From positions 4,549 to 68,548 of the forward strand of contig JAHEKF010000008.1 of the NCBI GenBank assembly GCA_024638465.1: a stretch of DNA of 64,000 nucleotides, read 5' to 3'. Positions 2,488-47,913 of this stretch are shown here, piece after piece. The DNA is from Rhodospirillaceae bacterium. GTDB lineage: Bacteria; Pseudomonadota; Gammaproteobacteria; Steroidobacterales; Rariloculaceae. Under the pieces are notes generated by a model. The model did no database searches and was not told where the DNA came from. It worked only from the letters and a program-made list of their open reading frames with translations. The translations under genes were made by a program, and so were the position numbers. The stretch's first letter is position 1, and each line of letters starts with the position of its first letter.

Positions 2488-2497
2488 CTTGTGTGGT

Positions 2498-5031: not shown

Positions 5032-5049
5032 TGGTATCACCGCGGTCTG

Positions 5050-5070
5050 TCCGGCAACTCATTTGCCGGA
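5050..5070. other. Perfect 8-bp intergenic hairpin between two methyltransferase genes
   Basis: TCCGGCAA-CTCAT-TTGCCGGA, with no U-tract on either side. Confidence 0.45.
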
Positions 5071-5088
5071 GGTTGCGATCCTACAACG

Positions 5089-5943: not shown

Positions 5944-5963
5944 GGGGTTCGTTCCTTGCGGGA

Positions 5964-18123: not shown

Positions 18124-18213
18124 TATTTCGAATACTCTCGACCGCGGCAGCTATACGACATCGGTAGATGTGCGTATATATATAAGCTCGCGGCTGTCGA
18201 AGTCTCTGATGCT
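18124..18213. promoter_or_regulatory. Divergent promoter region shared by mtrAB and the nqr-like operon
   Basis: Only 90 bp between opposing starts; contains the palindromic AT tract TATATATATA (18175-18184) in a GC-rich background. Confidence 0.5.
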
Positions 18214-20667: not shown

Positions 20668-21275
20668 CTGGCGATCTGGTCATCATCGCGTTCCGCGCGA
20701 TCTTCATTGAGAATCTGGCGCTGAACTTCCTGCTCGGTGTCTGCACATACATCGCCGTCTCTCAGCGCGTCGCGACCGCGCTCGGCCTCGGAATGGCCGT
20801 GACGGTAGTACAGACGATTACTGTCCCGGTCAACAATCTGATCTACCGAAACCTGCTCGAGCCGGAAGCGCTTCGATGGGCGGGTGTCGTAGGCCTGGAC
20901 CTTTCGTTTCTGCGATTCATTACCTTCATCGGTGTCATCGCTGCGGGTGTCCAGATACTCGAACTGACACTCGATCGCTACTTTCCACGCCTTCAGCATT
21001 CGCTCGGCGTCTATCTGCCACTCCTGACCGTCAACTGCGCCATCCTCGGCGGGTCTTTGTTCATGGTGCAGCGCGATTACAGCTTTTCGGAAAGTGTGGC
21101 GTACGGGTTTGGAAGCGGCGCCGGGTGGGCTCTCGCAATCGTGCTGTTCGCAACTATCAGGGAACGAATCGACGAGAGCGAGGTTCCCGAAGGTCTGCGC
21201 GGACTCGGTCTCGCATTCGTCGTCACCGGAATTCTGGCTCTGGGCTTCGCAGGGCTCAGAGGTCTCGAGTTCTAG
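20664..21275 (+). CDS. nqrE: NqrE subunit
   Basis: [19 protein letters not shown] and [13 protein letters not shown] (both FeS cysteines present). Confidence 0.93.
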
Positions 21276-21289
21276 AGCGCAGGCCTGAC

Positions 21290-33884: not shown

Positions 33885-34425
33885 ACTCGCGACCATCGAC
33901 AGCCGTCGTCTCGTCTTCCGCTTTGAGATGGACGACGACCCGGCAGCCGGGATGGCCCTCGGCGATCGTTTCCTGGAGCTCCACTTTGGCATAGCCCAGA
34001 TTTTGCGCGGCGATGTACCCGAATACGTTCGATGTCATCATGCACATCGACGGTCGGCCTATGACTTTATCGCCGAAAGGGCAGCTGTGATTGCCGAACA
34101 CGATCTTGTCTTCGTCTTCCTCGATGATGTAGAAGCGGCCATCGATACGGCGCTTCAGATCGACGAGGACGTCGGCCACTTGCGTGCGGTCAAGCTTGTC
34201 GACGGAGAGCTCGTTACGGTAAGAAGAATCGAGCTTCGTGCCAATCACCTGCCCGACGACGCTAATGTATCCCGACGCGTCCTCGAGGCCGACAACATCC
34301 TCGAGTGTTCCGGCCAGTTCGCGGATCAGATCCCGCATGAACAGGTCGCGGCTCAACGGAATGTCGGACGCCGCCGCGTCCGAATCGCTTCTGGTGTCTT
34401 CATTCATCGTTATCTCCGACGCCAT
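33871..34425 (-). CDS. Methanogen output domain 1 (MetOD1, V4R-like) protein
   Basis: [12 protein letters not shown]...[33 protein letters not shown]...GCRVVV. Confidence 0.8.
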
Positions 34426-34607
34426 CCTACCATTCCCTCTCAGTGAGGTAACGCAGCGACGGGTACGCAGCACCGATATGCAGGACGGCAGCGAGCCACA
34501 CGACTCGCTTCAATCCCGCGATGAAACCGGGGGAGAGTTCAGCCGGACGAATCGACAGGCACAGCAAGAAGAAATTATTAATCAGCAGGTTGCGGCGTCA
34601 CTACGGG

Positions 34608-36083
34608 TCAGGGAACGCTCGCGAGCTGCGTTACTACGTAGGTCACGCTCGCATCCATCGCTTCCAGCATAGGCCCGGGATAAACCCCCACAAAGATCAC
34701 TGCGACCGCCAGGGGCGTCACAGTGAGCATTTCCCGGAAATCCAGATCTTTCAGATTGCGCGCCGCTTCCGTTCGCGGTTGTCCCAAAGCAACTCGCTGC
34801 AGCATCCACAGCATGTAGGCCGCACCCAGGACGATGCCGCCCATCGCGAGAACCACGAAGATGAAGTTCTCGTAGGACACGCCGACAAGAATCAGGAACT
34901 CGCCGATAAAATTCGACGTTGCCGGCAACCCGAAAGATGCCACCGCAAACAGACTCAGAATAGCAACGAAACGCGGCATTCGCTGATGAAGACCACCATA
35001 GTCCGCCATCGATCTGCTATGGGTGCGGTCATAGAGTTGCCCGACGATCAGGAACATCGCGCCCGTCGTGAGACCGTGTGTAACCATCTGCAGAATCGCG
35101 CCCTCGATGCCTTCATTGTTGAAGGAGAAAATACCAAGCGTCACGAATCCCATATGAGATACCGAGGAATAAGCAACAAGGCGCTTCAGATCGTTCTGCG
35201 CCAGCGCCATGTAACCACCGTACAGTATCCCGGTAACTGACACCCACAGCACGACAGGCGCAACATTGTGCGCCACTTCCGGAAAGATCGGCAGGCAGAA
35301 ACGCACGAAACCGTAGCCACCCATTTTCAGAAGCACCCCGGCCAGCAGCACGCTACCGGCCGTTGGCGCCTCGGAGTGCGCGTCCGGAAGCCAGGTGTGA
35401 AACGGCAGCATGGGCAGCTTGATCGCAAAACCCAGGAACAACGCAAGGAAGATCCAGGATTGCGACTGCGGCGAATAGGCGTGCTCGGCCAGCATCGCGA
35501 TATCGAACGTTCCCGCCTGCAGTGACAGGCCCAGAATGCCGATCAAGAGCAGCAAGCTTCCCGCCAGGCTATAGATAACGTACTTCAAACCGGCCGCGAC
35601 GCGATCGGGTCCACCCCACAGGACGATCATGAAATACATGGGAATCATCGTGACTTCCCACAACATGAAGAACAGGAATGCGTCGAGGGCGGTGAACACG
35701 ACCATCATCGCGCCCTCGACGAGAAGTATCAGCATCATGAACGCTTTCAACCGCGTCGTGATCGATTCCCACGAACCCAGTACGCAGAGCGGCGGAAGAA
35801 ACGTTGTCAGTAGTACGAGCAGCAGGCTGATACCGTCGATACCGACCGCGTATTGGATACCGAACGTCGGCATCCAATCGACACGCTCGACGAACTGCAT
35901 CCCGGTTTCGACGTAGTCGAAGTTCGTCCAGAGATAGAGAGCAAAGCCGGCGTTGATGAGCGTTGTAGCAAGCGTCGCTGAGAGTACCGCCGTACGCTCG
36001 CGGACGAGCGCAATAGCTACCATGCCGAGAAACGGCACGGCAATCATCCAACTCAGCAAATGGTCTGCGATCAGTGCGCTCAT
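34608..36083 (-). CDS. nuoM: NuoM-like proton-translocating subunit
   Basis: GIDGIS, WEVTMIPMY, AIKLPMLPFHTWLPDAHSEAPT, LKMGGYG, AYSSVSHMG. Confidence 0.88.
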   Translation of the reverse strand: MSALIADHLLSWMIAVPFLGMVAIALVRERTAVLSATLATTLINAGFALYLWTNFDYVETGMQFVERVDWMPTFGIQYAVGIDGISLLLVLLTTFLPPLCVLGSWESITTRLKAFMMLILLVEGAMMVVFTALDAFLFFMLWEVTMIPMYFMIVLWGGPDRVAAGLKYVIYSLAGSLLLLIGILGLSLQAGTFDIAMLAEHAYSPQSQSWIFLALFLGFAIKLPMLPFHTWLPDAHSEAPTAGSVLLAGVLLKMGGYGFVRFCLPIFPEVAHNVAPVVLWVSVTGILYGGYMALAQNDLKRLVAYSSVSHMGFVTLGIFSFNNEGIEGAILQMVTHGLTTGAMFLIVGQLYDRTHSRSMADYGGLHQRMPRFVAILSLFAVASFGLPATSNFIGEFLILVGVSYENFIFVVLAMGGIVLGAAYMLWMLQRVALGQPRTEAARNLKDLDFREMLTVTPLAVAVIFVGVYPGPMLEAMDASVTYVVTQLASVP

Positions 36084-36091
36084 ATCGTTGC

Positions 36092-38179
36092 CTACCTCGC
36101 GATCCAGTAGAAAAAGCCCAACGCCGCAATCAGCCAAAAGACGATCACCAGCAGGTTGTGCTGAAGCGTTCGAGGTTCGTATCGTCGCGCAGCGTGACCG
36201 GAAGCTTCGACACCGCGGCCCAGACCCTCGACTGTTTTATTGATACCAGCGGTATCGACGAATTTTCCGAGCCAGCGCGCAGTTCTGACGCTGCCCGTCC
36301 CGACCGAGACCACGCGTTGATCTACTGCGCGATCCAGATAGCCGAGCCGGCGCGCGATGCCTGTACTGACGGAGCCCACGGAGACAACGATGTGGTCGAC
36401 CAGGCGATCCACATGGGCTAACTGCCGGGCAATGCCTATGCTCATGGAACCCAATGAGACGACGAGGCGGTCGACGATACCCTGATCGATCGTACGCCAT
36501 GCCCAGTTCGCGAAACCGAGTGTTGGCCGTACGATAAAGACATCGTAGATCTCATCGAAATAGCCCTTGTTCAGCAAAAATACATAAAGCCGCTTCCGCC
36601 ATGGCGCAGCGCCGTGTGCATGGGGTCGATTCCGTCGAATATACGCGACGGCCCAACCGGCTGCGGCCACAGCGACCGGAACCAGCAACCAGGCAGAGAA
36701 TCCTGGCGTCGCTGCGGACACGGTTCCGCCAACGGCAGGCGACAGAAATGCGACGAACCAGCGCCATACAGAGAGCATGATCCCGATCAGAACGATCGAA
36801 GCGACGGCGATTCCGAAGATGTGTTGCGGCGAAAGCAAGGACGGCACGACACGCGGCTTGTCGTCTCCGGCACCCGGCGGGCCGTCATTAAAAACGCTGG
36901 AGATACTGTCGAAAATAGACATTGCGGTAAAAAATACGGTTCCCAGCCCGACGATCCACAGCACGACGCTGGCGGGAGCGAAGCTTTGCGAAAGCCAGAG
37001 GTGCTGATACGCACCCGAGAAGATTACGAGTGGCGGCACGACCGACAAAATAAACGCGCCGGCGAAAAGGCTGCCCATCGCACGGGGCGGGGCTTTTTCC
37101 GTCGTCTCGAAATGGCGATGCGTTGCGGCCAGCACGTTGCCGGTCGACAAGAACATGAATGCCTTGAAAAAACCGTGCGCAATCAAGTGGAAGATAGCCG
37201 CAACGAATGCGCCAACGCCGCATAGCATCGTCATGAACCCGAGCTGGCTGATAGTCGAGTACGCGAGAGTTCGCTTGATATCGGTCTGCGTCAGCGATAC
37301 GAGAGCGGCAAAGAGCGCGGTAGCCGCGCCAACGGTAGCGATAACGGTCATCGCCGTGGGCGACAACACGATGACTGGGCTAAGCCGAACAAGCAGGAAT
37401 GGCCCGGCATTAACCATCGTAGCAGCGTGGATCAGCGCCGATACGGGTGTCGGCGCCTCCATTGCGAATGGCAGCCATACATGCGCCGGCATCTGTGCCG
37501 ATTTTCCTACTGCGCCGGAGAACAGACATAGCGTGAGCAGCGTTACGATATGTGCCGGGATATCGCCGCCGGCCTGTGCAAGCTCGAGGATCTCCGGGAT
37601 GTTCAGCGTGCCGAAAGTCCGAAACGTGAGAATCACGCCGACGAACAGGCCCAGGTCCGCGACTGAGTTTACGAGAAAGACCTTCGTAGCCGCGCTGGCA
37701 GCCGATGGACGTTCGCCGTAGTGGGAGATCAGCAGGTACGAGCAGATTCCCATGACCTCCCAGAAAATGAACGTCATAAGAAGGTTGCTGCTCATGACCA
37801 GCATCGTCATCGCGGCGGTAAACAGCGCCGTTAAACCGAAGAAACGGCTGTGGCGACGGTCGCCGATCATGTAACGGGATGAATAGACCTGCACGATCGT
37901 GCCGACGCCCGTTACGAGAAGAAGCACGAGCACGGTGAGCTGATCGAGATAGAAACCCAGATCGACGGTGAGCCCACCCACGTCGAGGAAGCGGTAGAGC
38001 TCGATTTCCCGGGCTCCATTGGCGGACACATCGAAGAATGCCGCGACCGAGACAAAGAAGGAGATAGCTACTGCCGGAACGACAAGCCGGTGCCCGGCAC
38101 CCTGGAGGCGCCGCCCGAAAATTGCGAGAACGAACGCCGCCGCGAGCGGAAGCAGGGGAATTAGCGTATAGATCGACAT
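36092..38179 (-). CDS. nuoL: NuoL/MrpA/DabB-like antiporter subunit with repeat-extended C-terminal helix
   Basis: WEVMGICSYLL, GKSAQMPAHVWLP.AMEAPTPVSALIHAATMV, AYSTISQLG, KGYFDEIY. Confidence 0.88.
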   Translation of the reverse strand: MSIYTLIPLLPLAAAFVLAIFGRRLQGAGHRLVVPAVAISFFVSVAAFFDVSANGAREIELYRFLDVGGLTVDLGFYLDQLTVLVLLLVTGVGTIVQVYSSRYMIGDRRHSRFFGLTALFTAAMTMLVMSSNLLMTFIFWEVMGICSYLLISHYGERPSAASAATKVFLVNSVADLGLFVGVILTFRTFGTLNIPEILELAQAGGDIPAHIVTLLTLCLFSGAVGKSAQMPAHVWLPFAMEAPTPVSALIHAATMVNAGPFLLVRLSPVIVLSPTAMTVIATVGAATALFAALVSLTQTDIKRTLAYSTISQLGFMTMLCGVGAFVAAIFHLIAHGFFKAFMFLSTGNVLAATHRHFETTEKAPPRAMGSLFAGAFILSVVPPLVIFSGAYQHLWLSQSFAPASVVLWIVGLGTVFFTAMSIFDSISSVFNDGPPGAGDDKPRVVPSLLSPQHIFGIAVASIVLIGIMLSVWRWFVAFLSPAVGGTVSAATPGFSAWLLVPVAVAAAGWAVAYIRRNRPHAHGAAPWRKRLYVFLLNKGYFDEIYDVFIVRPTLGFANWAWRTIDQGIVDRLVVSLGSMSIGIARQLAHVDRLVDHIVVSVGSVSTGIARRLGYLDRAVDQRVVSVGTGSVRTARWLGKFVDTAGINKTVEGLGRGVEASGHAARRYEPRTLQHNLLVIVFWLIAALGFFYWIAR
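36262..36480 (-). repeat. Three tandem 75-bp (25-aa) repeats inside the NuoL-like gene
   Basis: GAGAC anchors at 36306, 36381 and 36456; protein units begin VDRLVVSLGS, VDHIVVSVGS and VDQRVVSVGT. Confidence 0.85.
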
Positions 38180-38184
38180 CGCTC

Positions 38185-39648
38185 TCAAACGCCTCCGCCG
38201 GCCAGGGATTCGAGCAGGAATCGAACGATCGAATCACTCATCAGACCGAGCGCAATCATCGAAACGGAAATCGCGCCGAGACTGACGCGCAGGGATCCAG
38301 CCACGGGCTGCGGTTGTGCTTCGGCGCCGGCGGACCTATTGAACCAGCACGCGAAAATTCTGACGAAGTATCCAAGCGTAAGCAACGTCGAAGCGACTAC
38401 GGTGAACGCGGCAACCAGATGCCCTGCTTCCAGCGCGCCGAGGATGATGTTCCATTTACCGAAAAAACCGCCTGTCGGTGGTAGCCCGACCATCCCGACC
38501 GCGACGACTATCAGCGCCCCCGTAAGCCACGGTGAGCGCGGCCCGAGATCGCGCAGATCATCGAGAGAGCGAGCGCCGTGATAGTGCACCAGTGCGCCTG
38601 CAATCATGAATAGCGCCGCCTGCATGACGGCGTCGTTGATCAGGTAGAACATTCCGCCTACGAACCCCGTCGGATTTCCGAGGCTTACACCAATCAGAAT
38701 CAGGCCGATGTGGCTCACGCCGCCGTAGGCAAACATGCGCTTGAGATCGGTTTGAATCAGCGCGAGCGCCCCGCCGATCAGCGCCGCGATCACACCGAGC
38801 TCTTCCAGCAATACCAACACGGGAACGTGGCCGACCTCGAGACCGGGAACGATCAGTGAATACTCGATACGCACCCACGCAACGAGTGCAACTTTGGTGA
38901 CCGTCGACGCGAGCAGTGGCGCTACAGCTTCCGGCGCGTTCTCATACGCGTCGGGCAACCAGCTGTGCAATGGCACCAGTGCCATCTTGATCGACAGACC
39001 GAGAAAAATATAAATAAGGCCGCCGGCCACCGCAGTAGACGTCACGATCTGGGGCAACCGCGTTGCGAGATCCGCCATATTGAGCGTACCCGTCGCAGCA
39101 TACAGATGCGCAACGCCGAGCAGATATAGCGTGGCGCCGAAGGATCCCAGCAGCAGATAGCGAAATGCGAATACGCTCGCCTTGCCACCCTGAGCGCCGA
39201 CGAGTGCGTATCCCGTCAACGCAGCGACTTCCAGAAACACGAATACGTTGAAAAGATCTGCTGCGAAAATCAGGCCAACGAGACCGCCGATGAGCAGAAG
39301 AATCAGCGTGTGGTAGGAGATGCTTCTCTCGAGTCTCGCGGGTACGACGACGCGACCGAAGATCAGCGACAGCAGCGCCACGGCACTGATCGTCAGGACC
39401 ACGGTCGCGGCAATCGTATCGTCGAGCCACGCTATACCCAGGGGCGCGGCCCAGCCGCCGATCGCGTACTCGATCGGGCCGCCGTTCAGCACGACGCGCA
39501 GATTGACGATCGCCAGGACGACCATGACTGCCACCGCGCCGATCGTCAGCGGCTGGCAAATCGACGGACGCCTGGCCGCAAGAATAGGCATCGACACGCC
39601 CGCAAAGAACGGGACCAGGAAAAGGAGCATGGGCAGCTGACTGCTCAT
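38185..39648 (-). CDS. mrpD: MrpD-like antiporter subunit
   Basis: GGWAAPLGI, DLFNVFVFLEV, IKMALVPLHSWLPDAY, GLPPTGGFFGKW. Confidence 0.9.
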   Translation of the reverse strand: MSSQLPMLLFLVPFFAGVSMPILAARRPSICQPLTIGAVAVMVVLAIVNLRVVLNGGPIEYAIGGWAAPLGIAWLDDTIAATVVLTISAVALLSLIFGRVVVPARLERSISYHTLILLLIGGLVGLIFAADLFNVFVFLEVAALTGYALVGAQGGKASVFAFRYLLLGSFGATLYLLGVAHLYAATGTLNMADLATRLPQIVTSTAVAGGLIYIFLGLSIKMALVPLHSWLPDAYENAPEAVAPLLASTVTKVALVAWVRIEYSLIVPGLEVGHVPVLVLLEELGVIAALIGGALALIQTDLKRMFAYGGVSHIGLILIGVSLGNPTGFVGGMFYLINDAVMQAALFMIAGALVHYHGARSLDDLRDLGPRSPWLTGALIVVAVGMVGLPPTGGFFGKWNIILGALEAGHLVAAFTVVASTLLTLGYFVRIFACWFNRSAGAEAQPQPVAGSLRVSLGAISVSMIALGLMSDSIVRFLLESLAGGGV

Positions 39649-40019
39649 TCAAGCTGCTCCATCACCTCGTCCTCGTCAAGGCTTCGGTACTTGCGGTAAA
39701 TAGAAGAAACGAGTGCAAGCGAGACGCCGAGCGTGGCGACCTGGACGACGATTGCCGTTACCGTCAAGACATGCGGCAGCGGGTTCGCATACGCGGCGGC
39801 GTCCACCACGCCCTCCGAAATAATAATCGGAACGGCCGCCCCATCCTTAGCGCTGAACGCGACGAGAAAAAAGATCGCGCTGGTCTGGACGATATACAGG
39901 CCGATGAGCTTCTTCACGAAATTGGGGTGGGCCGCCATGATGTAGAAGCCCCACAAAAACAGAATCACAAAGACGACGAAGTTAGGTCGCTGCCATAGCG
40001 TTTGCAGAAGCTCAACCAT
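39645..40019 (-). CDS. mrpC: MrpC-like subunit
   Basis: NFVKKLIGL, NPLPHVLTVTAIVV. Confidence 0.88.
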   Translation of the reverse strand: MVELLQTLWQRPNFVVFVILFLWGFYIMAAHPNFVKKLIGLYIVQTSAIFFLVAFSAKDGAAVPIIISEGVVDAAAYANPLPHVLTVTAIVVQVATLGVSLALVSSIYRKYRSLDEDEVMEQLE

Positions 40020-40473
40020 GGGAAGCCTCGTCGCTCGGCTCATCCGCACCTTCGAAAGACAGGCTGATGGCTATCGAAACGCCTGTCACAGCGACATCGA
40101 CGGCCACGCCGACCTGAGTGAGCAATATTCCGATGTAATGTTGCGACGCTTCGTCGAGATTCGGAATCTCGAGATGCGTGTAGTTCAGGAACTGACCGCC
40201 GCCGATCATGCAGAGTCCACCAACGCCGGCGAAGATCAGCAGGCCCAAGCCGTCGCCGTGCACCACGGTCTTTGCCAGCCGGCTGTCGTGCGCGTCGAGC
40301 CCGTAGATCAGGATCGCGAGGATCATGCTGGCGGCGAGGATGACGCCGCCGACGAATCCACCGCCCGGCCCGTGCTGACCGAAGACGAGCACATAGAAGC
40401 CGAACAGCTGTGCAACCGGGATTACGATACGTCCGAGGGTCCGTACGATCGCGCTGTCGTGCGGGTGGATCAT
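40012..40473 (-). CDS. mrpB: MrpB (MnhB domain) subunit
   Basis: GQHGPGGGFVGG motif. Confidence 0.85.
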   Translation of the reverse strand: MIHPHDSAIVRTLGRIVIPVAQLFGFYVLVFGQHGPGGGFVGGVILAASMILAILIYGLDAHDSRLAKTVVHGDGLGLLIFAGVGGLCMIGGGQFLNYTHLEIPNLDEASQHYIGILLTQVGVAVDVAVTGVSIAISLSFEGADEPSDEASHG

Positions 40474-40994
40474 GAGCGGCCTCTCCTCAGGATCAGCGCG
40501 CATGCGATTCCGCCGGTGAAGATCACGATCGTCTCTATAAACGTGTCGAACGAACGATAGTCCATGAGAACCGCCGTCACGACGTTCGGGGTCCGTGTTT
40601 GCGCAACGCTGTTCTCGAGATAGGTCGGCGAGATATGAACACTTGCCGGCGATGTCGGATCGCCGAAAGCTGGCAAGTCACCCGCGCCGTAGAGAAGCAG
40701 GAGCGCGAGCAGCGGCAAGCCCACGAATGCGGCCCATGGCATCGGTGGCCGACGGATCTGTGTGTCCTTCTCTTCCGTACGGAACAGCGTCAGCAAAAAG
40801 AACACGGTTGCGAGTCCGGCGCCGACAACGGCTTCGACAAAAGCCACGTCCACCGCTCCCAGGAGTGCCCATACCAGAGCGAGCGCGAAGCTGTAGGAGC
40901 CGAGGATGAATACGGCCGAGATTAAATCCTTGACGAGGATCGCACCGGCCGCGGTCATCACCAGCAGGACAAGCAACGGAAGTTCGAAAGTCAT
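40470..40994 (-). CDS. MrpB-associated subunit (DUF4040 / MrpA C-terminal-like)
   Basis: AVDVAFVEAVVGAG and PNVVTAVLMDYRSFDTFIE. Confidence 0.85.
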   Translation of the reverse strand: MTFELPLLVLLVMTAAGAILVKDLISAVFILGSYSFALALVWALLGAVDVAFVEAVVGAGLATVFFLLTLFRTEEKDTQIRRPPMPWAAFVGLPLLALLLLYGAGDLPAFGDPTSPASVHISPTYLENSVAQTRTPNVVTAVLMDYRSFDTFIETIVIFTGGIACALILRRGRS

Positions 40995-41293
40995 TTATCG
41001 TCAACCTCTGTGGGTCGCAGACCCGATCGGTATGCGGCTCGAATCGTTGCGTGCGCGATGACCGGGTTCAGCAGATAGACAAGCGCCAACACGACGAAGA
41101 TTCTGAGAAAGTTCGAATTGAATCCTTCGAAGACGGCGAGTCCGCCCAGGACGAAAAGCGCTCCGAGGGAGTCGATCACCCCGAGCGCGTGAGCGCGACT
41201 GAACACCTCGGGCAATCGCAGCATGCCGACAGAGCCGGCAATGAGAAAGAACATCCCTATAAGGATCAGGCCCATCGCGACCCAGGTCATCAT
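40991..41293 (-). CDS. mrpG: MrpG-like subunit
   Basis: GMLRLPEVFSRAHA...DSLG, NPVIAHA. Confidence 0.88.
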   Translation of the reverse strand: MMTWVAMGLILIGMFFLIAGSVGMLRLPEVFSRAHALGVIDSLGALFVLGGLAVFEGFNSNFLRIFVVLALVYLLNPVIAHATIRAAYRSGLRPTEVDDK

Positions 41294-41559
41294 CTCGTCG
41301 CTCCTCTTTCCTCGAGGAATTTAGCGATCGCCAATGCGCCTACGAGGTTCAACAGCGCATAGCCTGTCGAGATGTCGACGAACATGTCGACTTGTCCGAG
41401 CCCGGAACCGATCACTACGAGCAGAATGATGGCTTTCGTCGAGATGCCGTTGAGCCCGAGCATCCGGTCGAACGCCGTCGGTCCGCGCACAACCCGGTAC
41501 AGATTGACCAGCATCAGCAGCGCCAAAGTCGTCAGGAGGAAGGTAAAGAAAGCACTCAT
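41290..41559 (-). CDS. mrpF: MrpF-like subunit
   Basis: YRVVRGPTAFDRML; start ATG 41559 overlaps the mrpE stop. Confidence 0.88.
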   Translation of the reverse strand: MSAFFTFLLTTLALLMLVNLYRVVRGPTAFDRMLGLNGISTKAIILLVVIGSGLGQVDMFVDISTGYALLNLVGALAIAKFLEERGATR

Positions 41560-42026
41560 TGCTCGCCGTTCCTCGGCTTGAACACGGTGCCGACTTTGGC
41601 ATCGAACTCGCCGCTCTCGAGCCCCCGGGTAGATTCCGCATCGATCGCATGAACCAGGAGCTCGCCCGGCCTGGCTTCGACGGTGACCGTACCGGGAGTC
41701 AGCGTTATCGAGTTCCCGAGGACGACGATCTCGCCGTCGCTCTTGAGGTCCGTCTTGTGTTGTACGAGTCTCGGAGCGATAGGAAGCCTGGGGTTGAGGA
41801 TCAACCAACTGACATGGATTCCGCTCTTCACGACACGCACGAGCAGCCAGGGCAAATAGCCCAGCGCTGCCGGCAGCGAGACGCGTCGCTGCATTGGCGG
41901 GCCGGGGGGCGTCAGCCACGCTACAACGCTGGCGACGACAGCGCCGAGCGCGACATGAGCGGGATGAAGCGTAGCCGACAGGACCAACCAGAGGGCAAAA
42001 AGCGCGATAGCAGCCAAAAATCTCAT
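41556..42026 (-). CDS. mrpE: MrpE-like subunit
   Basis: LGNSITLTPGTVTV...LLVHAI. Confidence 0.9.
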   Translation of the reverse strand: MRFLAAIALFALWLVLSATLHPAHVALGAVVASVVAWLTPPGPPMQRRVSLPAALGYLPWLLVRVVKSGIHVSWLILNPRLPIAPRLVQHKTDLKSDGEIVVLGNSITLTPGTVTVEARPGELLVHAIDAESTRGLESGEFDAKVGTVFKPRNGEQ

Positions 42027-44887
42027 AACTCTATGCGCTCCCAGGTCGCGTCCGTGTTGTAGCGATGGAATGTAAACGCTTCCGGATCGACTGCGACCAG
42101 GTTCACCCAGCCGTTATGAAAGAACTGCTGAAGTATTTCGTGTTTGGCGATGATCCCTCCGATAATCGATGGCGCTGCTTCGATGATCGCCATCAGTCGC
42201 ATCGGCTCATGAAAATGGATCTCGCCATTGTTGACCGTTTGCAGAGGCAATCCGGTCGCGAGGTCGCTCTGCGCGCCATACATCACGCCGACGCCCGCCA
42301 CGATGTTATGAATGACCTTGCTCCCGCTGCCGTATTTCCACGGATCGGTCGCGGAAGTGTAGTACTGCATGTTTATCCACTCGCCGACGACGAGTGGTGC
42401 CGTCATGATTTTCTCCAGTATCGCACCCTCCGGATCGGTGCTGGCATCATAGGAGTGCAGAAAGCAACGGCCGCCAAGATTGGATCCTTTGGTCAACGCC
42501 CGGCGTGCGATGATGAACCCGACATTGCCGGACAGACCCCACTCGGGCCGTGTGTTGGCCCAGTCGTAACCTCGCGCCTCGACGTGCGCATGGGCCTGCT
42601 GCGGCGTCATGCCACGGGGCGTCCCCGGAATGCGGCCGCAACGCTCCAGTGCTTGTTGTTCGCCACCCTCGATCAATGCCTCGCGAAGCTTCTGCAAGTC
42701 TTCCTGAAAGCTGTCGGGAAGATCAACGAGATCATAGAAATCGACCCGGTCAGCCGTGGTGTTGTGCTTGGCGGGAAGAAACCAGGTGTCCTCGGGGATC
42801 GACAGGCCTCGCTTCGCGAGCTCAGCGCGTACGGCCGGATCGTTGCCCATCGCGGCAAACGTGCGCGCGTTGGGGTCTCCGTGACGCCCGCCGCAGGCAC
42901 CACAGTCGAGCGCAGCGAAATAGGGGTTATTGTCCGTTGTGCTGCCATGACCACAGAGCACGATAAATCGAGCGAAGTTGTCAGTCAGGCCGATGGTACG
43001 GAGTCCGCCCTCCACGAAGTTCGCCTGCTGCTCGAGCGAAAAACCGCGGGGCAGCGCTATCGGCAGACCGCCAATCTGCGGCGGCTCGCTCTCGCCGACC
43101 TTGATCTCCGTCACGACCGGTCGCAGGAACCAGCCGCGCGTCGCGCGGACCAGCGCCTTGTACGGCCGCCGCACCAGCGTCTTGCCCAGCAACGCAGCGC
43201 TGAAGAACAACCCGAGCACATCAACGAGCAAAAAGGCTGCGACAGGATTGTGCTTCAGCTCGTGGAAAAGGTGCTCGCCGAAGCGTTTCCAGCGCGAACC
43301 GGAAGCGTATCGCTCCAGCGCCTGCTCCTGACCTGCGCGAGGCAGTTCGGCGAGCGCGTTCCCCGGTGTAAGAAGTACCGGACAAAGCGGGAAGGATTCG
43401 TCTGTATCGAAATTGCGGTGGTCCATCGGGATACCGAAAAAACCCGCGTATCCGAAGGTCTCGATTGCCCCGGTGTTTTCGAAGTGGCGACGAAACGGCT
43501 CCGAGCGGACGTCGATGCAGAACGCGGCCTGCGCCAGCGGACGCTCGTCGAGCGGTCGAACCGTTTTCCGGTCGGCTGCAATCTTCGACAGCAATTCATG
43601 GCGGTAGGAGTCTTCGTACGCTTCGAGCCAGACCGGGCTGTGCCGATCCGTTGGAAACGCGTCGAGCCAATCGAGCAATACGGATGCATGCTCGCCGGTC
43701 ATCGCCTGAACTTCATCGTCCGCGAGCGCAAGAAACTGTGCGAGGTGAAAGACACGCCATGCGTTGTGGCAAACCGCGCGCTTGTTGGCACCGACGGTTG
43801 AACCGGCCACCATGCCCTCAGCTTCGAGTCGGTTTGCGATGGCCGGAAGGTTTCCCGATACATTCCATCTTCGGTGCGCTTCCACGGCGACGAATTCCGC
43901 TTCGTAGAACAGACGCACAGCGAGGTATTGCGCGACATCGATCGGATTCACTTTTTGAATCGGATCCTCGGGATTCAGACCGCGCCAGCGGATCAGGCCC
44001 GTCCAGCCGGGAAGCTGGCCGAGCACGCGCATCAAATAGTCAGGCCAGCGCGCCTCGGGAATCTGCAACGTCTCAAGAGAATTCCGGATGGCGCCCTCAG
44101 GGTCATCGGGGAGCGCGCGGATCTTTTCCGCGAACCCGTCGATGCCGAGAAGCCGGCCGCTCGCGTCGTGCTGGGCGAGCTCACGCCATGCAGCGTAGAA
44201 GCCGGACCGTCTTTCGGGCATACCCCATCCGGCCATACCTTCATCGACGAACGACGAAACCCATTTGATTGTCTGCCGATCGATCGATGCGACGATGGAT
44301 GAGCCAGTGAGTTCGTCCAGCCAGTCGCTGAGCGCGCGGCGAAACGGCAGCTCGATCGTTGCGACGTCCGGGTTATCGTCTGCCGGGTCGGACGCACCGA
44401 TGCGGGGATCGATGAGATCCAGCGACGAGAGTACGCGCTGCCAGAGCGCGCTGAGGTCGACTTCCGTCGACGCGCCCGTGCGCGGTTGCGACAAGGCTCC
44501 GGCACTCGTGAACTGCCAGTCGAACAACGCCGGCTCGAGCGGATCGATGCCATGCAGAAAATGCATTCGCTGCACTTCCGCTGCCGATATCTTGCGTGAT
44601 CCGAGCGACAGCGATGCATCGTCCGTCGGACCGAGGCGTGCGATAGCGCGATCGACACTGCGCTCCGTGATTCGCCCGGCCTGATAGAGACTGCGGTATT
44701 CATCGACCGGCAAATAGCCTTCGGCACCGAACAAGTGCTTCGCCTGGCGCATTGCCTCGTCGAACGGCAGATGCTCGAGGCCCTGGATCGGATTGTGAGA
44801 CACGTAACCTTTCATCGGCCAGAACTGCGAGACCGGCTCGACGGCCTCGTCGATCAGCTGACGAAGTGTGGTGCTCGTCGCGGCCAT
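42023..44887 (-). CDS. dabA: DabA / DUF2309 (UPF0753) inorganic carbon transporter catalytic subunit
   Basis: WPMKGYVSHNP; beta-CA-like Zn ligand motifs FCIDVRSE, CGHGS...NNPY and LDCGACGG; RPEWGL, FLHSYD, HEPMRL. Confidence 0.93.
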   Translation of the reverse strand: MAATSTTLRQLIDEAVEPVSQFWPMKGYVSHNPIQGLEHLPFDEAMRQAKHLFGAEGYLPVDEYRSLYQAGRITERSVDRAIARLGPTDDASLSLGSRKISAAEVQRMHFLHGIDPLEPALFDWQFTSAGALSQPRTGASTEVDLSALWQRVLSSLDLIDPRIGASDPADDNPDVATIELPFRRALSDWLDELTGSSIVASIDRQTIKWVSSFVDEGMAGWGMPERRSGFYAAWRELAQHDASGRLLGIDGFAEKIRALPDDPEGAIRNSLETLQIPEARWPDYLMRVLGQLPGWTGLIRWRGLNPEDPIQKVNPIDVAQYLAVRLFYEAEFVAVEAHRRWNVSGNLPAIANRLEAEGMVAGSTVGANKRAVCHNAWRVFHLAQFLALADDEVQAMTGEHASVLLDWLDAFPTDRHSPVWLEAYEDSYRHELLSKIAADRKTVRPLDERPLAQAAFCIDVRSEPFRRHFENTGAIETFGYAGFFGIPMDHRNFDTDESFPLCPVLLTPGNALAELPRAGQEQALERYASGSRWKRFGEHLFHELKHNPVAAFLLVDVLGLFFSAALLGKTLVRRPYKALVRATRGWFLRPVVTEIKVGESEPPQIGGLPIALPRGFSLEQQANFVEGGLRTIGLTDNFARFIVLCGHGSTTDNNPYFAALDCGACGGRHGDPNARTFAAMGNDPAVRAELAKRGLSIPEDTWFLPAKHNTTADRVDFYDLVDLPDSFQEDLQKLREALIEGGEQQALERCGRIPGTPRGMTPQQAHAHVEARGYDWANTRPEWGLSGNVGFIIARRALTKGSNLGGRCFLHSYDASTDPEGAILEKIMTAPLVVGEWINMQYYTSATDPWKYGSGSKVIHNIVAGVGVMYGAQSDLATGLPLQTVNNGEIHFHEPMRLMAIIEAAPSIIGGIIAKHEILQQFFHNGWVNLVAVDPEAFTFHRYNTDATWERIEL

Positions 44888-44889
44888 TC

Positions 44890-46521
44890 TCAGCCCTTTC
44901 TTTTCCGTCCCGACAACGGATGGCCGGACAGTTGCTGATGGCCGTCGAGTCCGGCAATCGAAAGCTGGCGATCACCCTCTTCGAACTCTCGCTTCAGCGC
45001 AGCGAGATTGGCCATGACGGTATGGTCGACAAATTTCGTGCCTGAAAGATCGACGACAACTTCCTTCGCGCTCTGCGCCTCGATCCGGCTCTTCAGAGCA
45101 ATCCAGGTACTGAAGACGGCTGAATCGTCGACCTTGATCGTCGCCGAATCGCCTCCACCCGTACCGACCCTGATGCTCGGTTTGAACAGTGAACCAATCG
45201 GCGCTCCGTTGATGACATGGATTATCGCTTTGACGAGAATGCCGATCATGATTCCGATCAGCAGGTCGGTAGCGAGCACACCGAGAATAGTTGAAACAAA
45301 GACGATGAGCTGCTCGCGCCCGATCTTGTACATGTGCATGAACTCCTGCGGCGAAGCCAGCCGGAATCCCGTGAATACGAGCATGGCCGCAAGCGCTGCG
45401 AGCGGAATCTGGTTGATGAGCGCCGGAGCGAGCGCCACGAACAGCAGCAGGAATATGCCATGGAACATGTTCGCGAAACGCGTACGCGCGCCATTGTCGA
45501 TATTCGCTTTACTTCGCACGATCTCGGAGATCATCGGCAAGCCACCGATGAAAGCTGCGACTGTGTTGCCGATACCGACTGCCAGCAGGTCCTTGTCGAG
45601 ATTCGTTTTGCGCCGCCAGGGATCGATCTGATCGACAGCCTTGGCGCTCAGCAGCGACTCGAGGCTACCGATCAGCGAGAACATAATGATGTATTTGATG
45701 CCGACCGATGTCAGTACGCCGGAAAAATCCGGAAACGTCAGCGCGCTGAACATATTGCTCGGGACATTGACGAGATAGCGCGGCCCGACCGAACTCTCCT
45801 GCCCCGCGAACGCGATGGTGTGCTCCGTACCGATATCGAAGAAGATGCCGAGCGGTACTGCGATCAGCAATACCAGCATGGGCGCCGGGATGATCTTCAG
45901 CGTCGGATTCTTGATCAACGGAAAGCCGAACATGATGACGAGGCTGATGCCACCGATCAGCGCAATCACCGGGTTCATATCGATGAAATATTGAGGAAAC
46001 GACGCGAGTCGTTCCAGCGGCGTTCCTTCGGCCTGTACACCGAGCGTGATCGGCACCTGCGTTGCGATCACGAGAACACCGATCGACGCGAGCAGGCCGT
46101 GCACGGCCGATGTCGGGAAAAACTCGCCGAGTATTCCCGAGCGAAACACTCCGAAAAGAATCTGGATAACGCCGGCAACCACGCCGACACCGAGCGCCAG
46201 GCGATAGGCCTGAAAGTCGGCGGTGGGATCAGCGCCGCCGGTGAAGCCGAACTCGGTCACGCAACCCAGCGCGATAACGATGAGCCCCGCGGCCGGGCCC
46301 TTGATGGTCAGCTCCGAGTTGCTGATGAAGGCGGAGAGGATACCGCCGACAATCGCTGTGAAGACGCCCGCGATCGCAGGGTACCCGCATGCGAGTGAAA
46401 TCGCGAGACACAACGGCAGCGCAATCAGGAATACGAGGAAACCCGACAGCATGTCGGCTTTCCAGCTCTTCTTCAGGCCATCGAGCGTTCCCAAGGGAAC
46501 GTCGGGTGTTTGTGTATTCAT
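44890..46521 (-). CDS. SulP/SLC26 anion (probably bicarbonate) transporter
   Basis: SGFLVFLIALPLCLAI, KGPAAGL, LESLLS, EIVRSKANI, IPLAALAA; short STAS-like tail. Confidence 0.92.
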   Translation of the reverse strand: MNTQTPDVPLGTLDGLKKSWKADMLSGFLVFLIALPLCLAISLACGYPAIAGVFTAIVGGILSAFISNSELTIKGPAAGLIVIALGCVTEFGFTGGADPTADFQAYRLALGVGVVAGVIQILFGVFRSGILGEFFPTSAVHGLLASIGVLVIATQVPITLGVQAEGTPLERLASFPQYFIDMNPVIALIGGISLVIMFGFPLIKNPTLKIIPAPMLVLLIAVPLGIFFDIGTEHTIAFAGQESSVGPRYLVNVPSNMFSALTFPDFSGVLTSVGIKYIIMFSLIGSLESLLSAKAVDQIDPWRRKTNLDKDLLAVGIGNTVAAFIGGLPMISEIVRSKANIDNGARTRFANMFHGIFLLLFVALAPALINQIPLAALAAMLVFTGFRLASPQEFMHMYKIGREQLIVFVSTILGVLATDLLIGIMIGILVKAIIHVINGAPIGSLFKPSIRVGTGGGDSATIKVDDSAVFSTWIALKSRIEAQSAKEVVVDLSGTKFVDHTVMANLAALKREFEEGDRQLSIAGLDGHQQLSGHPLSGRKRKG

Positions 46522-46690
46522 GTCACCCTTCTTATCTTTGTTTCTAGAAATCGAAAGCGGATCGGCGGCGAACGCCGTCGCTCCTTTATTTTGCAGGACC
46601 GAGACCGGCCGTAATCTTCAGCGCTCCCCATGGAGCAGATTCATCGTCTCACTCCCCCTTTCGGGTTGTTATTGTGTGCAACCGCCGCGG

Positions 46691-47047
46691 TCATCGCCAG
46701 ACACGTCGTACGTCTTCTACGGCGCGACTGAGTTGCTCGGCATCTTCTGAGCGTGTATCCAAAAACTTTAATGCCTTGAGAAGCCAGCTTGCAAGCCCGC
46801 GATTGGTAAGAGAATACCGCACACTGCGCCCATCGCGTCGCTGTTTTACGAGCTTCGCGTGCCGCAGCACACTCAAATGCTGTGAAACCGTCGGCTGCGG
46901 CACTTCCAGGATTTCGACGAGCGAGTGTACGTCAAGCTCGCCGCTGTCGCCGTGAGCGAGCTCTTCGACGATGCGAATCCGAATTTCGTGGCCGAGCGCA
47001 CGGAACGTCTCAGCAATTTCACGCGCTACCATTTTTCGTGCGGGCAT
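46691..47047 (-). CDS. ArsR/SmtB family transcriptional regulator
   Basis: FRALGHEIRIRIV...QPTVSQHLSVLR...RRDGRSVRYSL. Confidence 0.9.
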   Translation of the reverse strand: MPARKMVAREIAETFRALGHEIRIRIVEELAHGDSGELDVHSLVEILEVPQPTVSQHLSVLRHAKLVKQRRDGRSVRYSLTNRGLASWLLKALKFLDTRSEDAEQLSRAVEDVRRVWR

Positions 47048-47187
47048 TAATATATCCTAATACGATGTTGTATTATCGGCAACATGGAACGGGATGGCGG
47101 CGTCGGCTCGGACCGATCGTCCGCTGTCGCCATCGCGTCGGCCGGCGCGACAGCAGTTGCGCTTGACTGAATGATTCGAAAGGAGCC

Positions 47188-47913
47188 TTGTTGGTGCGAA
47201 CGATTGGCGGGCTGACGCGCAGAGCGCTCATTGCCAGTATCGCGGTCACTGCCGCGTTGTTCGGAACGCTGGCACATGCGCAAGTCGACGAAGACAAGTT
47301 GGGCGCGTGGTACATGTACTTCTGGAGCATCCCGGCCGGTGACCGCAGCTACGGCTTCCAGGGTGACATCCAGCATCGCAACTGGGACAGCGGCGGGGAT
47401 CTCGAACAGCTGCTGATTCGCGGCGGCGTAACCTGGACGCCCGAAGGCAGGCGAGAGTTGTACACGCTGGGCGCCGCACACATCACATCGGAGCCGTTCG
47501 GCCCCGGCGGCGAAGCAGTCTACGAAACCCGGCTGTACCAGGAAGCCCTGATTCCTCAGCGTCTCGGGCGCAAGATCCATCTCACGCATCGCTTTCGCTT
47601 CGAGCAACGCTGGGTTGATAACCAGGATACCCGCTTCAGGGCACGCTACTTTTTCGCGCTGAATTACCCGTTCAACCAGGACACACTGGGCCGCGGCGCT
47701 CACTATTTATCTTTCTATAACGAGGTGTTTCTGAACCTCAATCAGAACATCGGCGACGGTCGCCGCGTGAGCCACTTCGACCGTAATCGCTTCTATCTTG
47801 CGTACGGCTACAGTGTTCGCGACAACATGCGCATCCAGTTTGGTTGGATGCACCAGGAAACGGATGCCATCGGTAAGCAACAGCTACAGTTCAACCTGTT
47901 TCATACTTTCTGA
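47188..47913 (+). CDS. DUF2490-like outer-membrane beta-barrel protein
   Basis: Signal peptide (AHA-Q), GAWYMYF, ETRLYQE, HRFRFEQRW, YNEVFLN, FDRNRFY, terminal Phe. Confidence 0.8.
   Translation: MLVRTIGGLTRRALIASIAVTAALFGTLAHAQVDEDKLGAWYMYFWSIPAGDRSYGFQGDIQHRNWDSGGDLEQLLIRGGVTWTPEGRRELYTLGAAHITSEPFGPGGEAVYETRLYQEALIPQRLGRKIHLTHRFRFEQRWVDNQDTRFRARYFFALNYPFNQDTLGRGAHYLSFYNEVFLNLNQNIGDGRRVSHFDRNRFYLAYGYSVRDNMRIQFGWMHQETDAIGKQQLQFNLFHTF

Follow-up and report, generated by a model that had tools for sequence, protein, structure and literature searches.

Genetic organisation of the locus

The window analysed here is a stretch of 64,000 nucleotides from contig JAHEKF010000008.1 of a metagenome-assembled genome (MAG; 3.26 Mb, 153 contigs, 88% complete). 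At positions 34608-47047 it carries twelve consecutive genes, all on the minus strand, in the order arsR, sulP, dabA, mrpE, mrpF, mrpG, an MbhD/E-like gene, mrpB, mrpC, mrpD, nuoL and nuoM, as identified from open reading frames (ORFs) and Pfam matches (Table 1). DabA, the catalytic subunit of the DAB carbon dioxide pumps, is thereby encoded together with the small subunits of an Mrp antiporter and with three large antiporter-like subunits, and our subject is the machine that these genes may specify.

Table 1. Features of the dabA-mrp-nuoLM block in the window.
Feature	Position	Strand	Basis or remark
ArsR-family helix-turn-helix regulator, heads the block	46691-47047	-	Pfam HTH_5, E 6.4e-12
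SulP-family anion transporter	44890-46521	-	Pfam Sulfate_transp, E 1.1e-55
DabA, 954 aa, beta-carbonic-anhydrase-like catalytic subunit	42023-44887	-	PF10070, E 8.8e-261
DabA catalytic core, zinc-ligand positions C457, D459, H647, C662	42902-43519	-	Alignment with DabA2
DabA finger/elbow hairpin, hydrophobic, residues 546-568, acidic D556	43184-43252	-	Aligns with DabA2
MrpE	41556-42026	-	Pfam MNHE, E 2.5e-35
MrpF	41290-41559	-	Pfam MrpF_PhaF; aligns to MbsB, MbhB and MrpF chains
MrpG	40991-41293	-	Pfam PhaG_MnhG_YufB, E 2.4e-20; TIGR01300, 75.7 bits (cut-off 63.1)
MbhD+MbhE protein, 174 aa (MrpA C-terminal domain)	40470-40994	-	Pfam MbhD and MbhE
MrpB	40012-40503	-	Pfam MnhB, E 5.3e-23; aligns to 6z16_B and 7qru_B
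MrpC (NuoK-like), start codon uncertain	39645-40049	-	Pfam Oxidored_q2, E 1e-17
MrpD, 487 aa, Mrp/Mbh-type antiporter-like subunit	38185-39648	-	MbsH, MrpD and MbhH matches
NuoL-like, complex-I-type, 695-698 aa	36092-38188	-	Proton_antipo_N and Proton_antipo_M; 695 aa from the ATG at 38179
NuoL-like extended lateral-helix region, residues 546-667, degenerate tandem repeats of ~25-27 residues	36179-36544	-	E. coli NuoL alignment
NuoM-like, complex-I-type, last gene	34608-36137	-	Proton_antipo_M; probable start ATG at 36083

The genes are tightly packed. Between sulP and nuoM, neighbouring genes overlap or lie no more than 8 bp apart, according to which start codons are taken: sulP and dabA are separated by 2 bp, there are 4-bp overlaps at dabA/mrpE, mrpE/F, F/G, G/mbhDE and C/D, and the longest ORFs overlap by 34 bp at mbhDE/mrpB and by 38 bp at mrpB/mrpC. 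The mrpD/nuoL junction is a 4-bp overlap if nuoL starts at a TTG and a 5-bp gap if it starts at the ATG at 38179, and nuoL and nuoM overlap if nuoM starts at a TTG or lie 8 bp apart if it starts at the ATG at 36083. Only arsR is set off from the block, by a spacer of 169 bp. The gene list from arsR to nuoM and the overlapping or abutting junctions described in the initial annotation, which was made from the sequence alone, agree with these ORFs and their Pfam matches. Its statement that no redox subunit is present also holds: every long minus-strand ORF of 34608-47047 could be assigned, and none encodes NuoH/MbhM, NuoB/C/D/I or a hydrogenase subunit.

A scan of 33800-47800 for promoters and terminators defined no operon boundaries; its counts did not depart from chance, with 4 promoter-like sites where 4.4 would be expected and 20 terminator-like sites where 14.6 +/- 4.4 would be. 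The sequencing runs that contain positions 38000-45000 are four DNA runs of one sediment-metagenome study, with no RNA run among them.

Conservation and distribution of the gene set

With the window DabA as query, a scan of one genome per GTDB species gave 135 stretches, 101 of which encode relatives; the best 80 were kept, with flanks of at most 10 kb. The window proteins were mapped onto these 80 loci by tblastn, gene calls being tblastn matches extended to ORFs. Such a survey reaches relatives that share peptide patterns with the query, and related genomes in it are not independent. DabA of the same clade (at least 44% identity) occurs in 71 of the best 80 loci, and the full order dabA-mrpE-F-G-mbhDE-B-C-D-nuoL-nuoM is found in 56 of these 71. 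Eight further clade loci keep the order up to the end of the contig or locus, six lie on contigs that end within 700 bp of dabA, and one (L021) has no mrp gene within 10 kb. DabA and the module therefore occur together in 64 of the 65 loci that extend past dabA. The suggestion that similar gene sets may exist elsewhere, made together with a proposal to survey DUF2309 neighbourhoods, is thus borne out across phyla. The other nine loci carry a Chloroflexota-type DabA (36-38% identity), six of them with a nuoL-like match just upstream, as in a classic DAB, and three with dabA alone.

In the surveyed loci, the mrp operon always ends with nuoL and nuoM, which never adjoin dabA, and the mrpD/nuoL junction is tight in most loci (median tblastn gap of 45 bp). 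In the genome of the exceptional locus L021 (G041), the mrp-nuoL-nuoM operon lies ~260 kb from dabA, again with nuoL and nuoM at its 3' end, which indicates that these two genes travel with mrp and not with dabA. Upstream of dabA, sulP is found on the same strand in 39 of the 71 clade loci, within 300 bp in 28 of them, and arsR homologues with 81-84% identity precede sulP in four gammaproteobacterial loci (L010, L011, L015, L027).

The carriers are gammaproteobacterial MAGs (Candidatus Rariloculaceae, Pseudohongiella, Halieaceae, Pseudomonadales), Nitrospirales including Nitrospira sp. T9, Bryobacterales and two MAGs labelled as Myxococcota. In a maximum likelihood tree of 75 full-length DabA sequences, from which partial sequences and the duplicate loci L002-L005 were excluded, the Mrp-linked ones form one clade of 61 rows (SH-aLRT support of 100). 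The two Myxococcota-labelled loci (L008, L009; 73-76% DabA identity) are nested in the gammaproteobacterial part of this clade, a placement that would reflect either recent transfer or mis-binning.

Three Nitrospirales chromosomes also carry a classic dabB-dabA pair, on the opposite strand and 2-7 kb from the Mrp-linked dabA (L065:3673-8568, L067:2913-7785, L072:3534-8436). The classic DabA of these loci fall outside the Mrp-linked clade, and both types of DAB stand there in one inorganic-carbon island. In four Bryobacterales loci (L042:1804-6963, L049:1244-6415, L054:2147-7309, L080:2709-7757), complex I nuoL-nuoM-nuoN genes lie directly upstream of sulP-dabA-mrp on the same strand.

The module has relatives that lack DabA. 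Among the 400 scored genomes of the class, MbhDE-like proteins of at least 75% identity occur solely in G000, G293 and G080; G293 has the full cluster, and G080 is known from its match row only. The next tier, at 45% identity or less, comprises 45 of the 400. In four of five distant relatives that were fetched, dabA is absent and mrpE-F-(G)-mbhDE-B-C-D is continued by two more PF00361 genes, with 25-33% identity to the window NuoL and NuoM. We therefore rejected the idea that only the DabA-linked form has the extra antiporter-like genes. For this Mrp lineage, three antiporter-like subunits are the norm; the form in the window is distinguished by their complex-I type and by having DabA.

Part of the genus Nitrospira has a dabA-mrpE spacer of ~500 bp that contains a strongly conserved element of ~270 nt (84% mean column identity over 7 sequences), found in 16 loci in all, e.g., at L031:13145-13422, L062:13143-13418, L029:13131-13405 and L043:13127-13405. 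At its end, a long hairpin showing two compensatory pair changes precedes a U run. An exact pattern for it matches 16 of 96 loci; each match is on the + strand of its locus and, wherever mrpE is in the locus, between dabA and mrpE. The spacer element has no conserved long ORF and no Rfam match, and is a candidate leader, attenuator or riboswitch controlling mrp-nuoLM.

Identity of the membrane subunits

Homologues of MrpA (N- and C-terminal domains), B, C, D, E, F and G are all encoded in one operon, according to Pfam and NCBIfam. The initial annotation had labelled two of the genes as a split mrpB; the first half is in fact the MbhD/E-like C-terminal domain of MrpA, and the second half alone is MrpB. 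The MbhD/E protein matches NCBIfam NF009159 (172 bits, cut-off 141) and aligns to residues 605-762 of 7d3u_A and to 6cfw_D/E, and some NCBIfam models (NF009161) give the name 'subunit B' to a fusion of both halves. MrpC matches the NCBIfam MrpC models, all below their cut-offs. For MbhDE, MrpB and the other small subunits, Mbh chains are the best or near-best solved matches.

The three large membrane subunits were scored against the sequences of solved structures. MrpD is closest to MbsH (6u8y_H, 202 bits), MrpD (7qru_D, 192) and MbhH (6cfw_H, 186), with NuoN at 128. The NuoL-like protein scores 266-275 bits with complex I NuoL, ~154 with MrpA and 135 with DabB2, and passes the NCBIfam model for NuoL (TIGR01974 NDH_I_L, 459.6 bits, cut-off 407.5). 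The NuoM-like protein gives 410 bits with Paracoccus NuoM (8qby_M) against 138 with MbhH. By these scores and the NCBIfam models, we rejected the assignment of the NuoL-like protein to DabB or to the MrpA N-terminal domain. The nuoL-like and nuoM-like genes of the proposed Mrp-type arm are thus present, but the solved-chain scores make both of true complex-I type and not of Mrp type. Judged by its sequences, the arm is best described as a chimera, in which a small-subunit block in Mbh order, with MrpD, is joined to the distal NuoM-NuoL pair of complex I.

The residues expected of antiporter-like subunits are conserved at positions that we take to be the canonical ones, the E. coli residues at these positions having been checked. 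MrpD keeps the Glu of transmembrane helix (TM) 5 and the Lys of TM7, TM8 and TM12 in all 61 orthologues, and the NuoM-like protein keeps E144, K234, K265, H322, H348 and E407 in 54 of 55.

The sodium path proposed for Mrp comprises MrpF Asp38; MrpA Glu687, Asp771, Asp776 and Glu780; and MrpB His34, Phe41 and Asp121, as described in PMC9568556. Here, the MrpF Asp (D31), in a GPTxxDR motif, is present in 65/65 orthologues. MbhDE has a DVAxxEAxxG motif, with the membrane Glu in the MbhD register (64/64), and a D[YF]RxxDTxxE motif corresponding to the D..D..E of the MrpA C-terminal domain (63/64). The PGGGF motif of MrpB, which holds the Phe, is found in 62 of 63. The residues of the path therefore seem largely kept, apart from MrpB His34 and Asp121 (see below), and the arm may use sodium.

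DabA and its proposed membrane partner

DabA covers the full PF10070 profile (positions 1-747) with 868 bits for a cut-off of 25, and matches the solved DabA2 chain 9rd0_A over the catalytic half (E 1.1e-117). Its zinc-ligand positions align to the FCIDVRSE, GHGS and LDCGAC stretches of DabA2, whose ligands we take to be C351, D353, H524 and C539, and they are kept in all 61 clade rows. D556, in the hairpin, aligns with Glu444 of DabA2; this position is Asp in 60 and Glu in 1 of the 61 clade sequences, and Glu in 14 of 14 classic DabA.

The finger of DabA2 bears on the identity of the partner. In DAB2, Glu444 is reported to replace Lys399/Asp400 of NuoL TM12b, and DabB2 to retain the Lys229/Asp178 pair while the Glu of the Arg175/Glu144 pair is lost (10.64898/2026.03.13.711513). 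We aligned 60 NuoL-like proteins of the cluster with E. coli NuoL. All 60 keep E144, D178, K229, H254, H334, H338 and K342, and all 60 have A, S or V at 175 and [PSAT][YF] at 399/400, i.e., the TM12 Lys/Asp pair is absent and the Glu144-Arg175 pair is broken. As controls, the four true complex I NuoL of the Bryobacterales loci read E-R-D-K-H-H-H-K-K-D at the ten positions, retaining K399/D400 and R175, and two classic DabB read Q-R-D-K-H-H-H-K-A-H, with K399/D400 absent too. The cluster NuoL thus appears, from its residues, to carry the functional signature of a DabB, reached by a different substitution.

No other gene is an obvious candidate for the partner. We found no DabB-clade PF00361 gene (~550 aa, with a short axial helix) beside dabA, either in the cluster or elsewhere in the 88%-complete genome, whose seven PF00361 matches are the three genes of the cluster and the complex I nuoL, nuoM and nuoN on two other contigs. 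The NuoL-like candidate is itself encoded seven genes downstream of dabA.

We predicted the complex of DabA residues 417-954 with NuoL-like residues 60-520, each with a 35-row alignment, in three runs and with three controls. All three runs gave an interface score (interaction prediction score from aligned errors, ipSAE) of 0.81, and none of the 3 controls exceeded 0.00; the runs share at least 94% of their contacts, and the predicted local distance difference test (pLDDT) of the partner was at least 81. When the tool was calibrated, 58 of 80 solved complexes reached the mark, as did 2 of 110 mismatched pairs. DabA 546-563 contacts NuoL-like 330-341 in the model, with D556 touching H331, A334 and H335, and the contacts of lowest expected error run from D556 and its neighbours to H331, H335 and K339, the equivalents of H334, H338 and K342. 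The model would place the DabA finger in the proton path of the NuoL-like subunit, and it supports this pairing without proving it.

This docking bears on the earlier proposal that DabA sits on the arm at the place of the catalytic head. The first part gains from the conserved gene unit, the want of another DabB-type partner, the DabB-like signature and the docked finger; the head position, at the NuoH/Q-module end, is not the predicted one, since the model docks DabA on the NuoL-type subunit, which lies at the distal end of the arm in complex I. CupA occupies a comparable distal position, on NdhF3 of cyanobacterial NDH-1MS.

The lateral helix of the NuoL-like subunit

The lateral-helix region of the NuoL-like protein varies in discrete steps. 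Between two conserved motifs it measures 45, 72, 93-99, 122-126 or 153 residues across orthologues, i.e., ~45 + n x 27 with n = 0-4; the copy in the window is 122 residues long. E. coli NuoL, whose lateral helix is of the length that spans two antiporter-like subunits in complex I, can be aligned with the 45-residue form without any gap, and most copies exceed this form by 27-108 residues. The repeat is easily seen in Nitrospira, where self-similarity peaks at a shift of 27. Tandem Repeats Finder gave no DNA-level repeat in the region, and since the repeats are visible solely at the protein level, they are old. An AlphaFold2 (AF2) model of the NuoL-like protein has a mean pLDDT of 70.6 and a predicted template modelling score (pTM) of 0.71, and its residues 597-681 are predicted helical with pLDDT below 50. 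In 2M complex I and in that of Candidatus Manganitrophaceae, a helix insertion of ~26 residues has been tied to one extra pumping subunit (PMC9040806). The lateral helix of Mrp is described as running along the cytoplasmic surface (PMC9568556), the side where DabA sits.

One arm or two machines

We consider it somewhat more probable than its opposite that the block from sulP to nuoM specifies an enlarged DAB-type vectorial carbonic anhydrase, built on one Mrp/complex-I-like arm and working without redox input. In such a machine, DabA would hydrate cytoplasmic CO2 to bicarbonate at its zinc site, and its finger would insert into the NuoL-type subunit, where Asp556 would supply the TM12 charge, as Glu444 does in DAB2; residue patterns and the predicted structure underlie this part of the model. 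The NuoL-type subunit would not stand free like DabB; it would be the end member of a complex-I-like membrane arm with the order NuoL - NuoM - MrpD - (MrpC, MrpB, MrpA-C-terminal-like) - (MrpG, MrpF, MrpE), tied together by the long NuoL lateral helix. Ion flow through this arm would power the conformational cycle that makes hydration one-way, with protons passing through the three antiporter-like subunits and sodium probably through the Mrp small-subunit site. The co-transcribed SulP could be a second anion route, possibly for bicarbonate, and ArsR a local regulator. That all ten proteins form one complex, and that Na+/H+ exchange is coupled to CO2 hydration, are parts of this proposal that we infer. 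The same applies to bicarbonate as the cargo of SulP, which scores 120.6 bits with the NCBIfam BicA model (cut-off 880) and has a weak STAS_2 match (26.7 bits, below the Pfam cut-off of 29.2).

We favour a single arm for four reasons: the mrp operon always closes with nuoL and nuoM, a set of three antiporter-like subunits is usual for this Mrp lineage, the DabC of DAB1 already stands at the NuoM position beside a NuoL-like subunit, and the NuoL-like protein has a long lateral helix. By analogy, the full NuoM found here would be a natural extension of the DabC arrangement.

Several observations weigh against it. DAB2 is reported to work with protons alone and with two proteins (10.64898/2026.03.13.711513). 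The complex model passed for a pair resembling DAB1 and DAB2, for which structures exist, and may merely reflect that likeness; moreover, it covers the DabA-NuoL pair alone, which would be common to one arm and to two machines. The geometry of the lateral helix lies in the region with pLDDT below 50, where AF2 cannot separate a straight from a folded helix, and since the same gene set accompanies n = 0 as well as n = 4, the number of repeats is not a plain count of subunits. In the sodium path, the equivalent of MrpB His34 is Tyr in 56 of 63 orthologues, and MrpB Asp121 could not be placed in the alignment. Finally, in Nitrospirales dabA and mrpE are 0.1-4 kb apart, with a spacer that sometimes holds unrelated genes and in part of Nitrospira a terminator-like element; together with the 260-kb separation described above, this implies that DabA is not always co-transcribed with the arm.

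The main rival, which we regard as unlikely but serious, is that the genes encode two co-regulated machines side by side: a DAB1-like trimer, with DabA, NuoL as DabB and NuoM in the place of DabC, and a minimal Mrp antiporter of Mbh type composed of MrpE, F, G, the A-C-terminal-like protein, B, C and D. The antiporter's task would be twofold: recycling Na+ for a SulP that works as a Na+/bicarbonate symporter, and offsetting the acid load of CO2 hydration. Such an arrangement has precedents on both sides, as DAB1 is described as a heterotrimer with DabC at the NuoM position (10.64898/2026.05.01.722082), and MBH shows that E-F-G-D/E-B-C-D with one antiporter-like subunit is a natural module, whose chains the small subunits match. 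A cooperation between Mrp and BicA has already been proposed in the Nitrospira literature (PMC7784846), the separation of dabA and mrp in Nitrospirales would be expected, and an antiporter would have work to do, given the cost of DAB1: one proton admitted and one released in the cytoplasm per cycle, i.e., two protons and an acid load (10.64898/2026.05.01.722082). Against two machines, nuoL and nuoM end the mrp operon and never adjoin dabA, even where dabA is 260 kb off, and their junction with mrpD is tight in most loci. Furthermore, a NuoL that clamps NuoM alone needs no helix of E. coli length, still less one with 27-108 additional residues, and the axial helix of DabB2 is reported to be short (10.64898/2026.03.13.711513).

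A bolder version of the single arm can also be entertained, though we find it doubtful. The block would then be a third architecture of vectorial carbonic anhydrase, 'DAB3', in which a sodium-translocating Mrp module replaces the Q-module as energy input and CO2 capture is pH-neutral. Na+ entry at the small-subunit site would drive H+ ejection via MrpD and NuoM and trigger NuoL-DabA, and the proton from CO2 hydration would leave the cell instead of staying in the cytoplasm. Overall, the sodium-motive force would drive the capture of CO2 as bicarbonate, a functional equivalent of Na+/HCO3- symport. A Na+/H+-exchanging module on the same arm could in this way remove the acid load of DABs, and the 27-residue repeats would be a molecular ruler for the reach of the clamp or for the number of antiporter-like copies held.

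Two further explanations appear improbable. The machine might run in reverse, with CO2 hydration or a bicarbonate/CO2 disequilibrium moving ions for pH or sodium homeostasis in alkaline or saline habitats. The free energy of CO2 hydration near equilibrium is small, which counts against it. Characterised DABs, too, are reported to spend ion-motive force to accumulate bicarbonate (10.64898/2026.03.13.711513, 10.64898/2026.05.01.722082). In its favour, the COGNAT study proposed that exergonic YbcC catalysis drives ion export, with more membrane subunits moving more ions (PMC5700660), several carriers are marine, sponge-associated or haloalkaline, judging from record titles and PMC7784846, and the window organism has no marker of autotrophy.

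Just as improbably, mrp-nuoLM would be an ordinary multi-subunit Na+/H+ antiporter with DabA a mere neighbour, soluble, loosely attached or uncoupled: the nuoL/M-like genes have been read as extra mrpA/D-like genes (PMC7784846, PMC12342949), and DabA-free relatives have three PF00361 genes, but this leaves unexplained the acidic membrane finger in 61/61 DabA rows with no other possible partner in the genome, the loss of K399/D400 in 60/60 NuoL-type proteins, for which the finger acid would substitute, the co-occurrence of DabA and the module in 64/65 loci and in one unlinked genome, and the confinement of close MbhDE-like proteins to cluster-bearing genomes (3/400, G293 checked).

Genome context and physiology

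The genome gives some indication of what the system would be for. Neither the large subunit of RuBisCO, for which a check of the genome had been proposed, nor an alpha- or beta-carbonic anhydrase was found in the 88%-complete assembly, and its MrpE (MNHE) match is single. Given these absences, the role is likely to be the supply and retention of bicarbonate for carboxylations rather than a carboxysome-type carbon-concentrating mechanism. Some carrier lineages are presumably heterotrophs. The carrier Nitrospira is described as an autotroph that uses the reductive tricarboxylic acid cycle (PMC8115632). With both kinds of carriers, the module does not seem tied to carboxysomes. We also looked for complementarity between beta-carbonic anhydrase and DabA in 41 relatives (PF00484 in 1 of 6 with DabA and in 17 of 35 without); this is a weak trend among related and, in some cases, incomplete genomes and was not used as support.

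Other genes of the window

Directly downstream of nuoM and on the same strand, positions 31797-34473 encode a protein with a methanogen output domain 1 (MetOD1) and a PAS-GAF hybrid histidine kinase with a receiver domain. This pair was not seen 3' of nuoM in related loci; four Nitrospirota loci have weak kinase matches (26-28% identity) far upstream of dabA. On the plus strand, 17185-22513 holds an NqrB-C-D-E-F-like row (NQR2_RnfD_RnfE, FMN_bind, two Rnf-Nqr and a Fer2/FAD/NAD-binding protein) without a preceding NqrA gene, and divergent from this row is a multihaem cytochrome c gene (17185-18123). We considered this NQR as a sign of a sodium cycle and dropped the idea, as no NQRA_N match was found anywhere in the 88%-complete genome. 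A 640-aa protein without Pfam match is encoded at 15323-17245. Positions 1066-8275 hold a row of minus-strand genes for two radical SAM enzymes, one of them B12-binding, for two methyltransferases and for two proteins of ~380-396 aa without Pfam match.

Significance and comparison with known systems

Among the CO2 pumps of prokaryotes, DABs are the most widespread type; how they are coupled has become visible only recently, in structures with two and three subunits. The proposed ten-subunit form is conserved in three phyla, including Nitrospira, a globally important nitrifier with cultured strains. If the single-arm reading is right, a DabA module can plug into a full complex-I/Mrp arm, and nature offers a redox-free system for studying the long-range coupling of antiporter subunits, with CO2 hydration as the catalytic read-out. 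It would also move the annotation of 'Mrp plus extra nuoL/M' in Nitrospira from salt and pH homeostasis to carbon acquisition, and provide a sodium-coupled option for engineering carbon-concentrating mechanisms. The quantised repeats bear on the role of the lateral helix in complex I and its relatives.

The closest structural relatives are the two characterised DABs. DAB2 of Halothiobacillus neapolitanus (9rd0, 9rd8, 9rd9) has a homologous DabA with the same zinc ligands and acidic finger, and a partner that lacks the TM12 Lys/Asp and has a broken second pair. The candidate partner here differs in being a complex-I-type NuoL of ~670-760 aa with a full and usually extended lateral helix, encoded seven genes from dabA at the end of the mrp operon; in its broken ion pair the Arg is the residue lost (R175 to A/S/V), in that of DabB2 the Glu, and the finger residue is Asp here and Glu in DabA2. 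DAB1 of Thermocrinis albus (DabA/DabB/DabC) shares a third membrane protein beside the NuoL-like one, at the NuoM position, but DabC is described as half the size of NuoM, with hydrophobic residues replacing those of the proton path (10.64898/2026.05.01.722082), whereas here NuoM is of full size and keeps its six canonical residues, and MrpD and six small Mrp proteins accompany it.

From the Mrp (CPA3) antiporters (Bacillus pseudofirmus 7qru, Anoxybacillus 6z16, Dietzia 7d3u), the cluster keeps homologues of the MrpA C-terminal domain and of B-G in one operon, together with the MrpF Asp and D..D..E. It differs from them in that the MrpA N-terminal domain is replaced by a complex-I-type NuoL plus NuoM and that dabA heads the operon, and its gene order and domain split are those of Mbh/Mbs (E-F-G-D/E-B-C-D), with the Glu of transmembrane helix 19 (TMH19) in the MbhD register. 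Cyanobacterial NDH-1MS/MS', driven by electron transfer, bears CupA/CupB on NdhF3/NdhD3, is also mentioned in the DAB papers and follows the same logic, in that a protein which hydrates CO2 sits distally, on the NuoL/NuoM-type subunits of an arm like that of complex I, although CupA is unrelated to DabA; here, no redox module is encoded and the Mrp small subunits take the proximal position. The 2M complex I of Nitrospira and the Complex_I_3 of Candidatus Manganitrophaceae also have a lateral helix lengthened by an insertion of ~26 residues (PMC9040806), whereas the unit here has 27 residues, is repeated 0-4 times with an unchanged gene set, and goes without a redox module.

Parts of the cluster have been noticed before. 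The COGNAT study (2017) described 'clade C' ybcC operons, with ybcC upstream of a nuoL homologue and with SulP and NuoM, and guessed at a new energy-converting complex; its accessible text does not mention Mrp small subunits and assigns no function (PMC5700660). Nitrospira papers report mrp genes ('group 3') followed by nuoM/nuoL-like genes near bicA, which they read as antiporter genes cooperating with BicA (Daebeler 2020, PMC7784846; PMC12342949), and the main text of neither contains a match to DabA or DUF2309, supplements being outside this check. It is very likely that the Nitrospira mrp + nuoL/M-like + bicA locus and the COGNAT clade C are the same type of cluster. The DAB papers, in the text accessible to us, mention Mrp solely as the family of DabB (10.64898/2026.03.13.711513, 10.64898/2026.05.01.722082, 10.1101/476713). 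Our search, supplements aside, found no literature linking DabA/DUF2309 to Mrp small subunits, in agreement with the initial annotation, which knew of no biochemical description, even if parts of the gene set were already on record in the COGNAT and Nitrospira genome papers. What was known, then, are parts of the cluster and the two- and three-subunit DABs; what appears to be new here is the proposed joining of DabA to an arm with the Mrp small subunits.

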